Source of the DNA: a virus
IMG/VR virus record: IMGVR_UViG_3300044701_004608
Coordinates: 47,783-111,782 of that record
DNA: 64,000 nt
Strand: one strand, 5' to 3'
Shown: one piece after another, positions 3,575 through 47,986 of the stretch
How positions within the stretch are numbered: position 1 is the stretch's first letter
How the letters are laid out: each line of letters begins with the position of its first letter
The notes under the pieces: generated by a model
What the model was told of the DNA's origin: nothing
Database searches by the model: none
What the model saw: the letters and a program-made list of their open reading frames with translations, nothing else
Made by a program: the position numbers and the translations under genes

Positions 3575-3633
3575 GATTATGTATTTAACCCTAGAGTTGT
3601 TAAAAAATATAGTAGCAGAAACTCAGAGATAAA

Positions 3634-3843
3634 TCAACCGAGAATAGTAGGTTTCCACGCCAAACACCAGTATTCTGGACGTACTGGTGCGAACCAGCGA
3701 CGGCACTGCCCAGAATCGAAATAGCCGCAATTACCACAGGCTTGGCTTCCCGGTGTTACACCGGGCACACCCGAAAGCTGATATTCGGGCGGCAGCTTTG
3801 GGCATATAGGTGTGCCATCGGGATACAGCCTCTGGTCACTCAC
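3634..3843 (-). CDS. HiPIP-like small Cys protein (putative 4Fe-4S)
   Basis: CGNC-x7-C-x11-WCLAW resembles the HiPIP C-x2-C-xn-C-xn-WC ligand pattern; no Tat signal. Confidence 0.5.
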   Translation of the reverse strand: MSDQRLYPDGTPICPKLPPEYQLSGVPGVTPGSQACGNCGYFDSGQCRRWFAPVRPEYWCLAWKPTILG

Positions 3844-4618
3844 TGGACGCCTCCGTGAAACGATCTGGGAACTGCAGGACTATGCCTTTGGCGAATATGT
3901 CCGAAAACGCTGGCGTGCCATCATACTGTCCGGCCAGGATGATACGGTGCGCTGTGTCCACCGCTTCGATATCGGCAGGCCAGTTTTTGCTGACGCGGGC
4001 ACGACATTGTTCGATCCAGGCCTGGAGCACTTTGCCAAAGATGGCCTTGACCACATCGGCGGGCCAGTGCTGGGGGTTGGCTTTTTGTGCGAAGTTGGCG
4101 AAATCGTCGAGTTCGGCATCGACTTTCTTGACTAAGGCATCGATGTTGCCGCCTTTCTTGAGCGTCTGCACGATCTCTAGTACTGTGAGTACAAACGATC
4201 TCATGTATTGTGCCAACTGTTTGCTGGCTACTAATCCATAGTAGGGGCGAACCGAGTCACCGATCTCGTCGATGTTTTGGAACAGTTGCTCTTCGACCAC
4301 GGCCAAGTCTTCGCCGTTGTGCAAGGCGCTGGTGATGTAGTTGCGCAGTCTCCACAGGTATCTAGCCCAGATGGTGCGCTGGTCCATGCGCCAAGTCACA
4401 GCGGGTTCTGTGTTGAACACCGATATCGTGCCGGGCACATACATGGCTGTTTCTGTGACCACTACGCCGTTGCCGTTGGGGTTACCGTTGCCGTTGGTGT
4501 AGCCGTTGCCGTTAGTGTAGCCGTTGCCGTTGAGTTTGACGCCGTTGATGGCTTCCAGGGCCAAGGGATGATCAAAGTGTTCTTCTTTGATGGTGTGTGT
4601 TATGAGTTTGTAAACCAT
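3836..4618 (-). CDS. Helical-bundle protein, paralog B, with NGNG repeats
   Basis: Shares MVYK start and W..Y.WR.R...YYG...NP..W...W...FA.GIV.Q.PDRF with 8559-9173. Confidence 0.75.
   Translation of the reverse strand: MVYKLITHTIKEEHFDHPLALEAINGVKLNGNGYTNGNGYTNGNGNPNGNGVVVTETAMYVPGTISVFNTEPAVTWRMDQRTIWARYLWRLRNYITSALHNGEDLAVVEEQLFQNIDEIGDSVRPYYGLVASKQLAQYMRSFVLTVLEIVQTLKKGGNIDALVKKVDAELDDFANFAQKANPQHWPADVVKAIFGKVLQAWIEQCRARVSKNWPADIEAVDTAHRIILAGQYDGTPAFSDIFAKGIVLQFPDRFTEASSE
4466..4531 (-). repeat. 18-bp tandem repeat encoding NGNG(YT/NP) x4
   Basis: Repeated gccgttgccgtt units; protein NGNGYTNGNGYTNGNGNPNGNG. Confidence 0.85.
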
Positions 4619-4633
4619 TTTAAATCTCCTTTG

Positions 4634-5155
4634 TTAAGATTGTTGTACATTGGCGATGACCCACCATGCGCCGTTTTGTCCCAGCAGAGTCACTGACTCA
4701 TAGGGTTGTTGCAATTCAAGTTCTTGATCTCTGCCTTCGAGATCGTTGCCACCTTGTGGGATGATCTTGGTCTTGTAGCCGCCGGGGCCACGCTGGTCCT
4801 TGATGATCAGGATCCTACAGATGGCACCTATCACTGGCAGTTTGATATCCACTGTCTTGCCCACGGATGGTTTGACGACTCCGATGTAGTAGTCATCGCT
4901 TTGTACCGTGTAGTCGGCGTTGACATAGCGTGTGACGCAGTTGTGATTACCCCCGCCACCGTTGGCGCTCAATGTACCATCGGCGGCCACTGTGAGACCT
5001 GTGCCGACCTTGACCACGCCCAGATCAGTGGTGGTGGCGATGTCAGCATCGATTTCAAAGTCCACGTTGCCAGCAGGCGCTGTAGGATCCGGAGGTATGC
5101 TTTGTTTCAAGGCTCGCCCTGCTCGCACTGCGGTGGGTGCGCGGAAGTAACTCAT
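4634..5155 (-). CDS. Mini-fibre protein (fibre repeat + beta head)
   Basis: ATTTDLGVVKVGTGLTVAADGTLS repeat plus DDYYIGV...LP...IIKD...W head domain. Confidence 0.7.
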   Translation of the reverse strand: MSYFRAPTAVRAGRALKQSIPPDPTAPAGNVDFEIDADIATTTDLGVVKVGTGLTVAADGTLSANGGGGNHNCVTRYVNADYTVQSDDYYIGVVKPSVGKTVDIKLPVIGAICRILIIKDQRGPGGYKTKIIPQGGNDLEGRDQELELQQPYESVTLLGQNGAWWVIANVQQS

Positions 5156-5164
5156 GATCGCTCC

Positions 5165-5557
5165 TTAGACCACGTGCCATTCCGTGCCACGGAAGATGAA
5201 ACTCACTGATCCGTAAGTCACGGTGTTGACGAAAGTGGCAGATCCATCGATGGTCTCGCCGCCAGTACCTTGGATGGTGATGTTGCCGGATCCTGGGCCC
5301 AGTTCGTCTTTGATGATGAACATCTTGCCATCGGTGCCAGTGGGCAGCGTGATGGTAGTGGCCACAGCCGAGTTCACTCCGATGTAGTAGTCATCGTTGG
5401 TGGCCGCGTAGTCCACTGTGACCACTGTAGTATTGTAGATGGGATTGCTGGGCGAGCCGCCTGTGACAGAGATCACGCCCCCGGTGATGGTTATTCCTGT
5501 GCCGGCCTGTACTAGGCCGAAATCTGTGGTTGATGCTAAAGGTACTTTGTATGACAT
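5165..5557 (-). CDS. Mini-fibre protein (fibre repeat + beta head)
   Basis: ASTTDFGLVQAGTGITITGGVISV plus DDYYIGVN..TITLP..GKMFIIKDE..TIDG..GTEWHVV; AAGGA RBS. Confidence 0.75.
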   Translation of the reverse strand: MSYKVPLASTTDFGLVQAGTGITITGGVISVTGGSPSNPIYNTTVVTVDYAATNDDYYIGVNSAVATTITLPTGTDGKMFIIKDELGPGSGNITIQGTGGETIDGSATFVNTVTYGSVSFIFRGTEWHVV

Positions 5558-5569
5558 GGTGTTTTCCTT

Positions 5570-6124
5570 TTATAGTTGTATGATGGTGCATCTCACGCTG
5601 GGTGTCGCTGGTCGGATGGGCCCAACTTGTGCAGGTGTAGTCAACAATCGCATGTTGACATCAGTGCTTTGCCAAGCGACCTGTATGTTGTCGCCGGCGT
5701 TTAACGCCACGGTGAAATTCCACGACGCCACCAACACTCCCACGGTGCCTTCCACTGACACCTGAGAGTTGGTATTGGGATAGGCTGTGCCATTGCGTAT
5801 CAGCCATAGGTCTGCGAGATCCGTCCCAGCGTCGGTCTTGTCGATCTGTATCACGAACTGGAAGTTGTAGTTGGCATCCTTGCTCACAGTGATCTGGGAG
5901 CCACCCACCAATGTGATGCCCACGTTGATGGCAGAGTTGTCAAATGTGATGATGTTGACAGCGTTGGCCACTGGGTTGGTCTGTGTCTGTGTGCTGAAAA
6001 AGTAGGCTTGATCCAGCAAGGCCACCGGCACCACGCTGATCACCCCATCAGTGACAGACAGTCCGGAGCCGGACTGTACCACTCCATAGTCACCGGCGGT
6101 GCTGATGGGCTGCTTGTAGGTCAT
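5570..6124 (-). CDS. Mini-fibre with C1q/BclA-C-like head
   Basis: Start revised to MTYKQP (TAATG overlap). Same N-terminal repeat, then ITFD..GITL..SQITV..YNFQF..IRNG..LNAGDNIQV jelly-roll pattern. Confidence 0.65.
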   Translation of the reverse strand: MTYKQPISTAGDYGVVQSGSGLSVTDGVISVVPVALLDQAYFFSTQTQTNPVANAVNIITFDNSAINVGITLVGGSQITVSKDANYNFQFVIQIDKTDAGTDLADLWLIRNGTAYPNTNSQVSVEGTVGVLVASWNFTVALNAGDNIQVAWQSTDVNMRLLTTPAQVGPIRPATPSVRCTIIQL

Positions 6125-6558
6125 TACACCACGTTCCATTCCGTGCCGTTGAACACCAGGGTTATGCTGGCATAGTCGGTGTTGAGCACATAAGTGGCAG
6201 CACCATCTATGGTGTTGCCGTTGCCGGACACTGTTATGTTGTTGGTGTTGGCGTCACCGTCGATGTCCTTGATGATCAAGACCTGTCCCACGATGGGACT
6301 GGCTGGCAGCACCACAGTAGCTGGTGCCGCTATGTTCACGCCCAGATAGTAGTCTCCGGGTTGCACGGCGTAGGGCGTGGAATTCACTATCGTGACATTG
6401 ACCGGGCTGGGACTGCCAGTGAATGTGCCTAGATTGATGAAGTCATTTCCCCAGCCACCAATGCTGTTGTTGAGTTGTGACACTGGCGCAGGGCGTGCTA
6501 CGGGTAAGAGACCCGGGCGGCGTGGGCGGAATATTATCGGGCTGTAGTACTGGAACAT
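6124..6558 (-). CDS. Beta-head paralog with Pro/Arg-rich N-terminus
   Basis: GDYYLGVN..VVLP..GQVLIIKD..TIDG..NGTEWNVV, paralogous to 4634 and 5165. Confidence 0.75.
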   Translation of the reverse strand: MFQYYSPIIFRPRRPGLLPVARPAPVSQLNNSIGGWGNDFINLGTFTGSPSPVNVTIVNSTPYAVQPGDYYLGVNIAAPATVVLPASPIVGQVLIIKDIDGDANTNNITVSGNGNTIDGAATYVLNTDYASITLVFNGTEWNVV

Positions 6559-6948
6559 TTATTTTTCCTTGTTTTCGTCAATGATGTCTTGTGCGGTCAA
6601 CACCTGTTTGACCTTGTTGATTTTTTTGGTCACTTCGTCCAAATTGGAGAATAGTGGGCCGGCCGCGGGTGCTTGTTCCACTGGTTCTTCAACTTCTGAT
6701 TCTTTGTCGTCAACGACGAACTTGAGAAGTTGTTCGGCCCGCTCTAAAATCTGTGCTTCTGTGGGATAAGGTGCGAATGGTGGATATGGCAAGCGTTCCC
6801 GGCGAGTTTTCCACACCAGATCAGCATCTGCCAACCACTTGTTGTGATCTTCGGCGCGCTTGTTGATGTATTCTTCGTTGAGGAGGGTGCGCGCCATCCT
6901 CAAGACCTCCATCCTATGTTTGGCTAGTTCAATGTCCTTGTCTATCAT
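6559..6948 (-). CDS. Hypothetical phage protein
   Basis: Start revised to the ATGA overlap; YPTEAQILERAEQLLKFV motif. Confidence 0.7.
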   Translation of the reverse strand: MIDKDIELAKHRMEVLRMARTLLNEEYINKRAEDHNKWLADADLVWKTRRERLPYPPFAPYPTEAQILERAEQLLKFVVDDKESEVEEPVEQAPAAGPLFSNLDEVTKKINKVKQVLTAQDIIDENKEK

Positions 6949-7148
6949 TGTTGTCCCCAATCACTGCGGTTCCATAATCTTTCATGTATGATATAACTGA
7001 TAGAGTTGATCACCAGTGTGGCAGCTCCTATCGATAGTCCTTTCCAGGGATCTCCAGTCACTACCCAACCCACTGTGCTGTTAGTGATCATCATCCAGAT
7101 CCTCCAGGTCAGAGTTTTGACTGCTGTGCGTGTCAGTGTGTCTGTCAT
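6945..7148 (-). CDS. DUF2061-like small membrane protein
   Basis: RTAVKTLTWR...VTG...YIIHERLWNR..WG. Confidence 0.75.
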   Translation of the reverse strand: MTDTLTRTAVKTLTWRIWMMITNSTVGWVVTGDPWKGLSIGAATLVINSISYIIHERLWNRSDWGQQ

Positions 7149-7396
7149 TGCCAGCGATCTAGCACGATAATCAGCACAGAGATCAAGGCTGTGGCTATTG
7201 AAACTGCTGTACCCACTACCTTGATCGTCTCTTGTCGATGGTGGTCACGATATTCTTTGAGCCGGGCCAGATCGTGTTCGGCCTCATCTATTCGTTTCTC
7301 GAGTGCCTGGTATCGTTCATGGCACAATTCTACATGTGCCTCAAGGTTGTCGCGCTCGATGCCGAGATACTTTTTGGCTGTGACCACAAAACTCAT
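7145..7396 (-). CDS. Coiled-coil + C-terminal TM protein, paralog of 24862-25131
   Basis: IERDNLEAHVELCHERY vs IEKKSLEAHVELCAERY. Confidence 0.75.
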   Translation of the reverse strand: MSFVVTAKKYLGIERDNLEAHVELCHERYQALEKRIDEAEHDLARLKEYRDHHRQETIKVVGTAVSIATALISVLIIVLDRWQ

Positions 7397-7400
7397 TGTG

Positions 7401-7661
7401 TTAACCCACTACAGTTGGTGTAGAAGTCTGCGCAACGGTATCCATGTCGCCGGTGTTTATCAAACGCTGACCTGACACTGCACTACGGTTGTAGTTGCCT
7501 ACAAATGTGTTGTTGGCACTTTGTACCGCGCCTACCCCAGGATAACCGTATCCCACACCGTATCCGCCAAATCCATAATTTGGCCATCCCCAGCCGCCCC
7601 ATGGGTAACGACGGTGAGCAAAGCTACCGTAGAAGGGGTGGTGATGATATAAACTAAACAT
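7401..7661 (-). CDS. Gly/Tyr/Trp-rich small protein
   Basis: Start revised to MFSLY (AAGGAG RBS). WGGWGWPNYGFGGYGVGYGYPG; C-terminus homologous to 7878-8441. Confidence 0.75.
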   Translation of the reverse strand: MFSLYHHHPFYGSFAHRRYPWGGWGWPNYGFGGYGVGYGYPGVGAVQSANNTFVGNYNRSAVSGQRLINTGDMDTVAQTSTPTVVG

Positions 7662-7680
7662 ATTCAATCTCCTTGTTAAA

Positions 7681-7707
7681 AGACGAGCAGGGATCACCCG
7701 CTCGTCT
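7681..7707 (-). terminator. Intra-operon hairpin (attenuator or stability element)
   Basis: AGACGAGC...GCTCGTCT stem followed by a short T run on the minus strand. Confidence 0.55.
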
Positions 7708-7715
7708 ACTCTCAA

Positions 7716-7862
7716 TTACCAGTAATAGGGACCGTAACCCCCACCGTAGTAGGGATAACCGTATCCATATCCCCAATATGGGTAGGCTAAGCCCCCATAG
7801 TAAGGATAACCAATACCGGCTGCCAGGTAAGGCCTGGCGTAACCCCAGGGCCTATAGAACAT
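7716..7862 (-). CDS. 48-aa Tyr/Gly/Pro-rich peptide (not in ORF track)
   Basis: MFYRPWGYARPYLAAGIGYPYYGGLAYPYWGYGYGYPYYGGGYGPYYW; GGAGG RBS. Confidence 0.8.
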   Translation of the reverse strand: MFYRPWGYARPYLAAGIGYPYYGGLAYPYWGYGYGYPYYGGGYGPYYW

Positions 7863-7877
7863 GGTCTCTTCCTCCGA

Positions 7878-8441
7878 TTAAGTGATCGAAGTTGGAGTCG
7901 ATGTCTGTGTAGTACCTGTCATGGTTCCGGTATTGACCAGACCTTGGCTAGAGATTGCACTGTTCAGTGCGTTGATAGCGGCTACGCTGTTAGCGCTCTG
8001 GTAAGCACTGACAGCACCACCGTAGGCTAGACCTAGACCACCATAGAGACCGTTAAGACCTGTCAGAGCTGTGTTGGTATTGATCAGAGCCGTGTTGAGG
8101 TTTTCACGGTTGATGCCGTTGATGAGCTGGCGTGTGAGTTCAGCTTGACCCATCACAGCTTCGCGTGTGCGAGCAGCTTCTTGCATGACGAGTGCGTCAG
8201 TGCGAGCGGCGGCCAACATAGCGGCTGTGTTAGCATCATTTACTGCCTGCTTGGTAGCAGCCAGTGCCTGGTCCGTGTGGAATGCTGTTTGCATAGCACG
8301 GTTGTTGATGTCGTTGCTTTGTGCGACTTGAAGTTTGTAGTTTTCGAAAACGCTGTCAGAAACTTTTGTGTTTACGGCCTGGATCTGTGCGCTCAGGGCG
8401 TAGAAAGGATCTGTTGTGAATGCTCCTGTTACATCTGCCAT
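7878..8441 (-). CDS. Ala/Asn/Gln-rich coiled-coil protein (putative major structural subunit of the cassette)
   Basis: AAGGAG RBS; first gene after a TAAGTA promoter; helical AARTREAVMGQAELTRQLINGINRENLN followed by GLYGGLGLAYGG. Confidence 0.8.
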   Translation of the reverse strand: MADVTGAFTTDPFYALSAQIQAVNTKVSDSVFENYKLQVAQSNDINNRAMQTAFHTDQALAATKQAVNDANTAAMLAAARTDALVMQEAARTREAVMGQAELTRQLINGINRENLNTALINTNTALTGLNGLYGGLGLAYGGAVSAYQSANSVAAINALNSAISSQGLVNTGTMTGTTQTSTPTSIT

Positions 8442-8466: not shown

Positions 8467-8496
8467 TTATACCGGACGTCCCGGTATAATTACTTA
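8467..8496 (-). promoter_or_regulatory. TAAGTA promoter with adjacent inverted repeat
   Basis: TAAGTA at 8491-8496; TTATACCGG-N5-CCGGTATAA at 8467-8489. Confidence 0.5.
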
Positions 8497-8512: not shown

Positions 8513-8535
8513 AAAAAGCCAGGCTTGAGCCTGGC
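8513..8535 (-). terminator. Intrinsic terminator after the luxR bicistron
   Basis: GCCAGGCT/AGCCTGGC inverted repeat followed by TTTTT on the minus strand. Confidence 0.65.
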
Positions 8536-8558
8536 CTAGTACTTGAGTGATGCGATGA

Positions 8559-9173
8559 TCACGTTGCTATGGCAAATCTATCGGGACTCTGTTGTACTAT
8601 CCCCGAAGCAAACACATGGGCCAATTGTCTAGCTGTGTCGAAGCATCTGTCAGTCGCAGTGAGATCCTCGTTCCAGTTTTTAATCAACCTCATATTGATC
8701 TGCGAAAACCATGTCTCTACTAAATCCATCAATTGATTTTTGATATTGAGCATGTTCCATGCTCCGGGATTGAGTGTAGACATGAGATCAAATAATTCAG
8801 ATGCACTGTTTTTTAATTTAGTCACTAAATCCTGCACGAACATGTCTGTGTTGATATTAAAATTTACCGGAGGTTTCTTGATATAATCTAACAACTGTAT
8901 CATTTCAGTAGTCTGTGCCTCCATGATAGTACGCCATCGCTGTGCTGAATCAGTACCATAGTAATCATTGATGGTATCGAAAAAATCAGAGATGTTAGCC
9001 ATGACCCATTCTCTCGTGACTGGCATCTCAGGCATCCCATTCATTACAGCTACTAGGTGGCTACGATTTCGCCAGACATAATCGTTCCAGAGGTCGCGGG
9101 ACCTGGCATGGAAATTGCCTACTTTGGCAGGATCTTCTTGGAAGTATTGTGTTGTGGTGACTTTGTAAACCAT
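8559..9173 (-). CDS. Helical-bundle protein, paralog A
   Basis: Start revised to MVYKV, just after the luxR stop; aligns with 3836-4618. Confidence 0.75.
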   Translation of the reverse strand: MVYKVTTTQYFQEDPAKVGNFHARSRDLWNDYVWRNRSHLVAVMNGMPEMPVTREWVMANISDFFDTINDYYGTDSAQRWRTIMEAQTTEMIQLLDYIKKPPVNFNINTDMFVQDLVTKLKNSASELFDLMSTLNPGAWNMLNIKNQLMDLVETWFSQINMRLIKNWNEDLTATDRCFDTARQLAHVFASGIVQQSPDRFAIAT

Positions 9174-9175
9174 TT

Positions 9176-9856
9176 TTATAACCTCGCTCCATTGTTGACT
9201 GCCAGGGCCAGTTGTGTACGGTTCCTGACACCGTATCGTTTCAAGATGGCACTGACATGTATTTTCACTGTGCTTTCTGATATGTTGAGTTGGCGTGCGA
9301 TGGCTTTGTTTGACAAGCCTCGTTCGCACAACAGTTTCTGTACTTCTTGCTGACGATCTGTGAGTGTGACTTCGTCGCTGTGCGATTTGGTGTCTGCTTT
9401 AGAAGTCTGCTCCATACATTCACGGGGCCAGAAATCCTGACCTTTGGTGAACATCTCTTCATAGGCTCGCTGATTCAGATAATAGTCGAAATCGTCGATG
9501 TGTGGGATCACTCCCGAGATGCCCATGTCCTTGAATGCTTTGACCTGTTGCCGTGTCAAGGGAGTCCTTAATAATACCAGGAATTTGCTATCCACTTCGC
9601 CGAATCGACAATCAAGGAATATCTTGAAACCCAGCACGAGGTCCCGGAATCGTTCGTTAAATTCATCGACGATGTTTTGATCGATGGAGATGAACTTGGG
9701 GGGCGAGTCGAGATGGGAGATGAACCCAAACGCTTGCCTGACATTGTTGGCCGACAAGGGTTGGAACCCAAACTGTTTGCCTCGGTCATTGAATACCTGT
9801 GATTGTTTTAGATTCGCAGAGATCCTCAATCCCAGTGGTGTGTTTTCCGTGTGCAT
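9176..9856 (-). CDS. LuxR/NarL-family transcription regulator
   Basis: C-terminal [49 protein letters not shown]; degenerate receiver-like N-domain; start revised to 9856 (AAGGA RBS). Confidence 0.9.
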
Positions 9857-9990
9857 TAGAATTCCTTTTCTTACATAGATACTTACATCGTAGAAGCCAA
9901 GGAAAACTAGTACTTGGACGCGGGTCATACTTCATTAGGGTCTCGGTATGACTGTTGTATACAAAGATACACGATATTTTTTCACAGTCA

Positions 9991-47678: not shown

Positions 47679-47986
47679 GACTGTCGCATACTCTCCATAG
47701 TGATCATTTTACCCAACTCGGCGTTGAAATCCTGCTCGTCGGTGATGATGTAGGCCCGATCATCTGTGCGATCTGTTTTTCGATCATAGACCCGGAAACT
47801 AACAACGAACCCGCCGATCATCTTTTTCACGTTGATGCGGAGTCCATCGTTCCATGGTGTCACATCCTCTTCTACTGTGGCATATTTCGCCGAACTGAGA
47901 CGCGATGTCTCTGCCACATCGGCGATATCTCGATTATCCCAGGCCCACTTACACTTGCGGACAAACCATCGATCAAACCATTTCAT
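47675..47986 (-). CDS. Hypothetical protein
   Basis: Translationally coupled ORF. Confidence 0.65.
   Translation of the reverse strand: MKWFDRWFVRKCKWAWDNRDIADVAETSRLSSAKYATVEEDVTPWNDGLRINVKKMIGGFVVSFRVYDRKTDRTDDRAYIITDEQDFNAELGKMITMESMRQS

Follow-up and report, generated by a model that had tools for sequence, protein, structure and literature searches.

Why should two proteins of one phage that match each other nowhere else end in the same sequence? The question is raised by a small unit of minus-strand genes in a 64,000-nucleotide (nt) stretch of DNA (hereafter the window), which covers positions 47,783 to 111,782 of the 111.8-kb IMG/VR virus record IMGVR_UViG_3300044701_004608. The unit encodes a 187-amino-acid (aa) protein, predicted to be largely helical and called the rod below, a 48-aa peptide made mostly of Gly, Tyr, Pro and Trp, and an 86-aa protein with a Tyr-rich N-terminal arm. 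All three open reading frames (ORFs) have the coordinates given in the original prediction for this DNA, which was made from the letters alone and spoke of a trio of major and minor subunits sharing a C-terminal motif. We find the motif in only two of the three proteins, the rod and the arm protein. Since the 48-aa peptide has no such tail, the unit is better described as a pair plus a peptide, and the 'major/minor subunit' label is an analogy only. Our analysis suggests that the rod and the tailed arm protein co-assemble through the shared tail into a fibrous structural module, most likely of the virion, and we put the chances of this reading at about even.

Two unrelated proteins share a tail that changes in step

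That the 187-aa and 86-aa proteins end alike is confirmed by BLASTP, which aligns them with 21 identities over 41 residues (51%, E 1e-8) and confines the match to their C-termini. The tail is uncharged, rich in Q, N, T and G, and follows the pattern Q-x3-N-T-G-x6-Q-T-x-T-P-T. As had been proposed, we built a profile of it; run as a hidden Markov model (HMM) against all six-frame ORFs of the record, it finds the same two proteins (E 9e-18 and 3e-16) and no other convincing match. The motif is conserved across related loci: it is present on both protein types in at least 25 of them, and in a wider superfamily of more than 1000 proteins no other part is as well conserved. The stretch rich in Gly and Tyr that was said to precede the tail in both proteins holds well for the 86-aa protein, whose N-terminal half is rich in Tyr, Gly and Trp, but in the 187-aa protein it is only about 15 residues long. 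For the 86-aa gene, the ATG at 7661, preceded by an AAGGAG Shine-Dalgarno (SD) sequence, is the likely start, because the alternative 104-aa reading from a TTG runs through the hairpin in front of the gene. We also considered a third tail-bearing ORF, a 51-codon frame on the minus strand at 3600-3755, and rejected it, as it reaches only E 1e-3 with the tail HMM and has no conserved counterpart in other loci. The same strand holds a possible 45-codon ORF at 3600-3737 with a GTG start, which overlaps the preceding stop, has a hydrophobic N-terminus and matches the tail profile weakly (E 1e-3), again with no conserved counterpart in the other loci.

The two tails vary together. In the 20 distinct genomes compared, which are related to one another, the tail of the small protein is identical to that of the rod from its own genome at 15.4 of 27 residues and to those from other genomes at 11.2 of 27 (permutation p ~5e-5). 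In three loci (L006, L009 and L017) the NTG-type tail has given way to a GAG-type tail in both proteins; in L069 both carry NFG-type tails ending in R, and in L028 both carry a QTQT variant. Within the window, 15 of the 27 tail residues are identical between the two proteins, with the same codon at 7 of the 15. Within a given genome, only about half of the identical tail residues share a codon, and nucleotide identity is 55-65%. Because about half of the identical residues use different codons, the match appears to be kept by selection and not by recent gene conversion. Conservation, selection and co-variation between the proteins are what a polymerisation or docking motif, as suggested originally, would predict. 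None of the three proteins matches a curlin repeat or another known family. Given that the tail changes in step in both proteins, we consider that the two most likely join into one fibrous assembly. The tail offers a clean case of a short element co-evolving in two unrelated proteins of one genome, and its natural variants (NTG, GAG and NFG types) could be swapped between proteins.

Many genomes carry two rod paralogues with slightly different tails; the lineage of the window carries one. The 45-residue tail of its 86-aa protein is closest to that of the 'variant' rod paralogue (28/46 identities with L008:3220 vs 22/46 with its own rod) and is closer to it than to the usual small-protein tails. 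Judging from these alignments, the 86-aa protein seems to be chimeric in this lineage, its Tyr-rich N-terminal arm coming from the usual small protein and its last ~45 residues from the variant rod paralogue. Such a combination of the arm of one protein with the tail of another suggests that the tail is a portable module. The variant rod paralogue itself has been lost from this lineage as a separate gene.

A family of helical rods in giant T4-type phages

The rod has many relatives, none of them with a name. A set of 5.8 billion proteins contains 768, mostly of 184-187 aa and 65-99% identical, on contigs of up to 332 kb; an exhaustive search reduces them to just 26 representatives at 50% identity. 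Through some of these representatives we reached a second, larger subfamily (>1000 proteins), in which the N-terminal helical part varies in length (from ~100 to 250 residues) and in sequence and the last ~25 residues are almost invariant. Clustered at 90% identity, the family as a whole forms roughly 1,000-1,800 clusters; its source phages are of T4 type and 258-400 kb in size. Pfam, PHROG, NCBIfam and PADLOC gave no match for the three proteins of the unit or for distant members of the rod family (in Pfam, none at E<=1 for the three). A PDB search with the sequence profile of the rod returned chance matches only (E>0.4), the ESM Atlas returned only unnamed viral clusters, megablast of the region gave no match, and a literature search on the rod family found no report. 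Within a large group of uncultured freshwater T4-type giant phages, few small gene units are as well conserved or, apparently, as strongly expressed as this one, which has no known family, fold match or function.

AlphaFold2 (AF2), given an alignment of 28 sequences, models residues 12-163 of the rod as one helix. Its predicted local distance difference test score (pLDDT) exceeds 90 for residues ~25-115, drops over a short Gly/Tyr/Leu stretch and falls below 50 in the tail. Within the family, indels of 11 and 18 residues preserve the phase of the helix. The protein would then be an elongated alpha-helical rod of ~150 residues, roughly 20 nm long if straight, ending in the tail. Coiled-coil heptads were considered and found unsupported: the hydrophobic periodicity is 3.6 and 4.4, not 3.5, and there is no steady a/d register. 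Since the model leaves the tail unmodelled and shows no heptad pattern, the term 'coiled-coil fibre' is not established for this protein. A natural comparison is with T4 fibritin (wac), which is likewise an elongated helical rod of a T4-type phage ending in a C-terminal element of ~27 residues, the foldon, thought to drive assembly. However, the rod matches neither the sequence of fibritin nor the Fibritin_C profile or any other in Pfam, it lacks heptads, it is far shorter, and it shares its tail with a non-helical Tyr-rich protein.

A conserved Gly/Tyr-rich peptide

Between the two tailed proteins the original prediction had noticed an unannotated peptide of Gly, Tyr, Pro and Trp preceded by GGAGG, and it proves to be a real gene. 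These four residues make up 77% of the 48-aa ORF and from 58% to 79% of its homologues, and the GGAGG lies 7 nt before the ATG. All related IMG/VR loci that reach past the rod gene have a Gly/Tyr-rich ORF in this position; L007 stops at the contig edge, and L019 departs from the family after 42 codons. Compared with its homologue in L004, the peptide shows 0.53 synonymous (pS) and 0.075 nonsynonymous (pN) differences per site, which gives a pN/pS of 0.14; for other pairs the ratio is 0.07-0.3. By these values, this frame is under purifying selection. The case shows that gene callers miss Tyr-rich microproteins that are conserved phage genes.

Two variations on this arrangement may be mentioned. 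In L019 (3213-3437) the Gly/Tyr ORF turns into unrelated sequence at the point of departure and the rest of the cassette is missing, the switch being either a recombination breakpoint or a chimeric assembly. In the distant subfamily (L032-L087) the small ORFs are rich in Tyr, Pro, Arg and Asp instead of Gly and Tyr. They encode 42-63 aa with two conserved Cys and stand ~2 kb past the rod gene, behind a collagen gene (e.g. L038:6224-6355 and L065:5345-5536).

Signals that suggest a strongly expressed two-gene message

The hairpin between the second and third genes has an 11-bp G+C stem (-20 kcal/mol, z -2.3) followed by UUUU, and a scan for consensus terminators missed it, as it has only 4 U. 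In ~20 distinct loci an equivalent stem-loop, its stem unrelated in sequence, occupies the same interval together with a run of T4-T7. Because the stems differ in sequence while the place and the T-run persist, the hairpin appears to be conserved as a structure, and it fits a leaky terminator. Compensatory stems keep the hairpin at this position, with its T-run, and the originally suggested rise in the output of the first two genes is therefore plausible.

In front of the rod gene, a TAAGTA box is found 49-108 nt upstream in 32 of 86 distinct upstream regions, against ~3% expected by chance, in both subfamilies (loci L003-L093). The leader that follows it folds more stably than its shuffled versions (mean minimum free energy -14.1 vs -6.0 kcal/mol). 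The record of the window has only 4 instances of TAAGTA with an SD and an ORF behind it; the rod gene and a LuxR-type gene (box at 9880-9885) account for one each. Since it also precedes the regulator gene, the box may represent a cassette-specific promoter type, possibly read together with the LuxR/GerE-type protein. The late promoter TATAAATA is not found upstream of the unit. We considered whether the palindrome downstream of the box, which is unique in the window, might be a LuxR operator. Related loci hold a different hairpin at the same place after TAAGTA, and as they keep the hairpin but not its sequence, the palindrome is more simply read as a leader hairpin.

Codon usage points the same way, the rod gene having the lowest effective number of codons (ENC) of 38 window genes (39.4), that is, the strongest bias. 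Together, the ENC, the TAAGTA box with its leader hairpin, the strong SD and the hairpin after gene 2 would describe a stabilised, strongly translated two-gene message, from which the 86-aa gene and the remaining genes of the cassette would be reached by read-through. In that case promoter, leader hairpin and leaky terminator may set the stoichiometry, with rod and peptide in excess over the tailed arm protein and the products of the downstream genes.

Neighbouring fibre genes and the place of the proposed assembly

The features of the region are collected in Table 1. Along the minus strand, the order is a terminator, the TAAGTA box, the palindrome, the 187-aa gene, the 48-aa ORF, the hairpin, the 86-aa gene, the 83-aa gene, the DUF2061 gene, a 133-aa gene and four mini-fibre genes. 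The terminator at the head of this series isolates the three-gene unit from the gene upstream. The 83-aa gene starts 4 nt past the stop of the 86-aa gene, and in the window the unit joins the mini-fibre genes through overlapping or 4-nt junctions.

Table 1. Coordinates of the three-gene unit, its signals and its neighbours in the window
Feature	Position	Strand	Support
187-aa rod gene	7878..8441	minus	AAGGAG SD
48-aa Gly/Tyr/Pro/Trp peptide gene, without tail	7716..7862	minus	GGAGG SD; conservation; pN/pS 0.14
86-aa protein gene: Tyr/Gly/Trp-rich N-terminal half and 45-residue tail	7401..7661	minus	AAGGAG SD; alignment
Tail-coding segment of 187-aa gene, last 27 codons	7881..7961	minus	BLASTP; tail HMM
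Tail-coding segment of 86-aa gene, last 27 codons	7404..7484	minus	BLASTP; codon comparison
Stem-loop then UUUU, putative leaky terminator and/or 3' stabiliser after first two genes	7681..7707	minus	Folding; cross-locus conservation
TAAGTA promoter-like box, 55 nt before start of 187-aa gene	8491..8496	minus	Cross-locus enrichment
Perfect 21-nt palindrome, read as 5' leader hairpin of transcript	8468..8488	minus	Unique in window
Intrinsic terminator of upstream helical protein A gene	8516..8537	minus	9-bp stem with 6 GC pairs; T-run
83-aa coiled-coil protein with C-terminal membrane anchor	7145..7396	minus	Homologues in related loci
67-aa DUF2061 membrane protein, start overlapping preceding stop	6945..7148	minus	PF09834, E 1.8e-14
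Four co-oriented mini-fibre genes, downstream in same gene string	4634..6558	minus	Phage_depo_C beta-sandwich, E 3.8e-6; Mtd_N-type N-termini
Helical protein A, 204 aa, cassette neighbour	8559..9173	minus	AF2
LuxR/GerE-type regulator heading cassette, own TAAGTA box at 9885	9176..9856	minus	PF00196, E 8e-16

This association with fibre genes extends well beyond the window. Among 80 distinct loci of both subfamilies, 65 contain a collagen-like or beta-sandwich fibre gene, the next gene after the rod in the distant subfamily. Of the 80, 57 hold a Tyr-rich small ORF, 34 the tailed small protein, 27 helical protein A and 14, including the 400-kb record, a LuxR-type gene adjoining the rod. In that phage, whose rod is very diverged, the order is LuxR, rod, collagen fibre, Tyr-rich ORF, helical protein A and Mtd_N fibre.

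We propose that the three genes are the highly expressed front of a structural cassette that has its own regulation in T4-type giant phages. The rod and the 86-aa protein, which bears the same tail on a disordered Tyr/Gly-rich arm, would be joined through the tail, a putative strand-type association element, to each other or to one acceptor site. The 48-aa peptide would be a free Tyr/Gly-rich partner, and the Tyr/Gly segments a sticky, possibly cross-linkable filler. The assembly may work with the neighbouring collagen-like or beta-sandwich mini-fibres, most likely as a fibrous appendage or a coat of the virion. If the tail is a self-templating or docking code, it would explain how variable fibres are attached to a constant base, and it could also serve as a portable assembly tag.

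In a general way the cassette resembles systems of collagen fibres and a Tyr-rich matrix, such as the BclA nap of the Bacillus exosporium with its Tyr-rich coat proteins, or dityrosine-linked cuticles and eggshells. Fibres of collagen type with globular heads here accompany small Tyr/Gly-rich proteins, in a cassette headed by a GerE/LuxR-type regulator, and the 48-aa peptide has the high Tyr/Gly content in a structural context that would suit dityrosine linkage. The systems differ in that there is no homology between them and the setting is a phage; no oxidase or peroxidase turned up, and no systematic search for one was made.

Several observations weigh against co-assembly into a virion module. 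The AF2 model has neither a modelled tail nor a heptad pattern in the rod, and tblastn of the rod and of a distant member against cultured phages gave no match, so that no cultured relative carries the family. The co-variation of the tails rests on few independent switches and on related genomes, and the place of the 48-aa peptide in the assembly is suggested by position and composition only. The cassette appears to have a dedicated LuxR-type regulator and a rare promoter box instead of the general late promoter. Finally, with two small membrane proteins encoded between the three genes and the fibres, an assembly at the cell membrane is no worse a fit than a part of the virion.

The last two points would be accounted for if the proteins built a structure of the infected cell, such as a cytoplasmic or membrane-attached scaffold or a Tyr-rich condensate under the LuxR-type regulator. 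The tail-anchored and DUF2061 membrane proteins belong to the same transcription unit, and the Tyr/Gly and Tyr/Arg-rich microproteins show typical 'sticker' compositions. Moreover, relatives carry host-surface genes in the variable region between replication and structural genes (PMC7029224), and this is where the cassette is found. However, tight and widespread linkage ties it to fibre genes of the collagen-like and Mtd_N/beta-sandwich kinds, which encode virion parts elsewhere, and abundant structural parts typically show conservation as strong as that of the rod (65-99% identity over hundreds of phages). We therefore think an infected-cell structure distinctly unlikely.

The shared tail might also be an address tag that delivers unrelated cargoes, the rod and the Tyr-rich arm, to one acceptor with which it co-evolves, be it the capsid interior, the portal, the neck or the baseplate. 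In favour of this, the tail is short, stands at the terminus and is portable from one N-terminal part to another; its changes run in step in both carriers, and a Gly-rich linker of low model confidence precedes it. In being a short terminal tag portable between unrelated proteins of one genome it recalls encapsulin cargo-loading peptides and the T4 capsid targeting sequence. It differs from them in its unrelated sequence, its greater length and its flanking fibre genes, which are its constant neighbours, and in lacking a linked shell or acceptor gene; indeed, no acceptor has been identified, and we found no longer protein with the tail fused to a known domain. In all three records in which a gp23-type capsid gene was located, it is far from the cassette (30 kb in G004, 60 kb in G002 and >230 kb in G001). 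The cassette is thus not part of the head gene cluster, which also speaks against membership among prohead scaffold or core proteins. On balance, a delivery role for the tail seems unlikely.

Amyloid-type motifs and curli

Co-assembly through the tail may be specified further. The tail might form a self-complementary beta-arch strand by which the rod, the Tyr-rich microproteins and the collagen-like fibres co-polymerise by templating, with the scarce tailed arm protein as nucleator, into an amyloid-like, possibly Tyr-cross-linked coat or fibre. We regard this more specific proposal as rather improbable. If it is true, bacteriophage structural modules would here gain their first functional-amyloid-type assembly code, matched genome by genome.

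A related alternative takes the tail as a putative amyloid-type templating motif like those of HET-s/NWD2, BASS or CsgB/CsgA, through which the scarce tailed Tyr-rich protein would nucleate a cross-beta fold and so convert or polymerise the abundant helical protein, either for fibres or for a membrane-active state at lysis. It overlaps in mechanism with co-assembly into a fibrous module but adds a further claim. As in the HET-s/NWD2 and BASS pairs, adjacent genes have in common a low-charge motif of ~25 residues, here rich in N, Q, G and T and containing an N-x-G turn; the two copies agree within each pair or genome, and one of the carriers is helical. A helical domain followed by a C-terminal motif is also the layout of Bell/HeLo effectors (10.1101/2020.01.06.895854). 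Further, a rare nucleator and an abundant subunit would agree with the stoichiometry that the hairpin suggests, membrane proteins are encoded next door, and a true curli operon is present in the same phage. However, no NLR/STAND ATPase accompanies the phage proteins: NACHT and NB-ARC have no match in the cassette, and the partner in the tail is the 86-aa Tyr-rich protein, so that both motifs are C-terminal. The cassette is of structural type with very high expression signals, and neither Pfam, PADLOC nor the curlin-repeat profile matches the tail, which is present as one copy, not as repeats. We hold amyloid-type templating of this kind to be quite unlikely.

The comparison with curli deserves separate attention, as this phage encodes a true curli/type VIII secretion operon ~11 kb from the cassette (L095:13928-17294, corresponding to ~41.7-45.1 kb of G000:C1, 2.7-6 kb before the start of the window). 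Its genes encode CsgF (PF10614, E 2e-16), CsgG fused to an SH3 domain (PF03783, E 1.5e-47), a FecR-domain protein and a curlin-repeat protein (PF07012, L095:14977-15642, E 4.9e-9). Two other phages of the close subfamily also have CsgG ~10 kb from the cassette. Curli operons have been described for pelagimyophages (PMC7029224), in which the subunits were said to be missing. Like CsgA and CsgB, the rod and the 86-aa protein share a Q/N/G-rich strand-turn element and may be paired as an abundant and a scarcer component. Nevertheless, we rejected the idea that they and the peptide are the missing subunits. No curlin repeat is found in the three proteins with the same Pfam library that detects PF07012 elsewhere in this phage, and by inspection their N-termini show no hydrophobic segment of a Sec signal peptide. 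The motif is single and the rod has a long helical body, unlike the curli subunits, and the curli operon has its own curlin-repeat protein. In addition, the complete 258-kb and 400-kb phages, which belong to the distant rod subfamily, have no CsgG, so that a link to the phage curli operon is not a requirement for the family. The operon is adjoined by genes for an F5/8-type-C protein and a MotA/ExbB-like protein.

Source phage and other observations

The record is a fragment, estimated to be 32% complete, and encodes a ribonucleotide reductase, a UvsW-type helicase, a DnaB-type helicase and several Mtd_N-type fibre proteins. Its source is an uncultured giant T4-type phage; two related records that are rated complete, of 258 and 400 kb, carry gp23-type capsid genes.

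Fibre proteins of the cassette (window 6124-6558, L008:5736-6227 and L065:4614-5336 among others) share a motif ahead of the collagen part, G-G-x-G-N-D followed by two hydrophobic residues, N and G; the 144-aa mini-fibre of the window keeps this motif without collagen repeats. A likeness between the G-N-D motif and the tail was considered and dismissed as not significant (E 1.1). Helical protein A, modelled by AF2 as a six-helix bundle (pLDDT 92.4), yielded only generic matches and no informative PDB match. Together with a paralogue (3836-4618) it brackets the cassette, and its homologues follow the three genes in most close loci. Elsewhere in the record, a 709-aa protein (L095:6519-8648, minus strand) is 44% identical to a protein of Methylophilales phage Melnitz that bears the annotation adenylate/guanylate cyclase domain protein and 37% identical to a protein of Pelagibacter phage HTVC008M; judged by this protein, these two would be the nearest cultured relatives.

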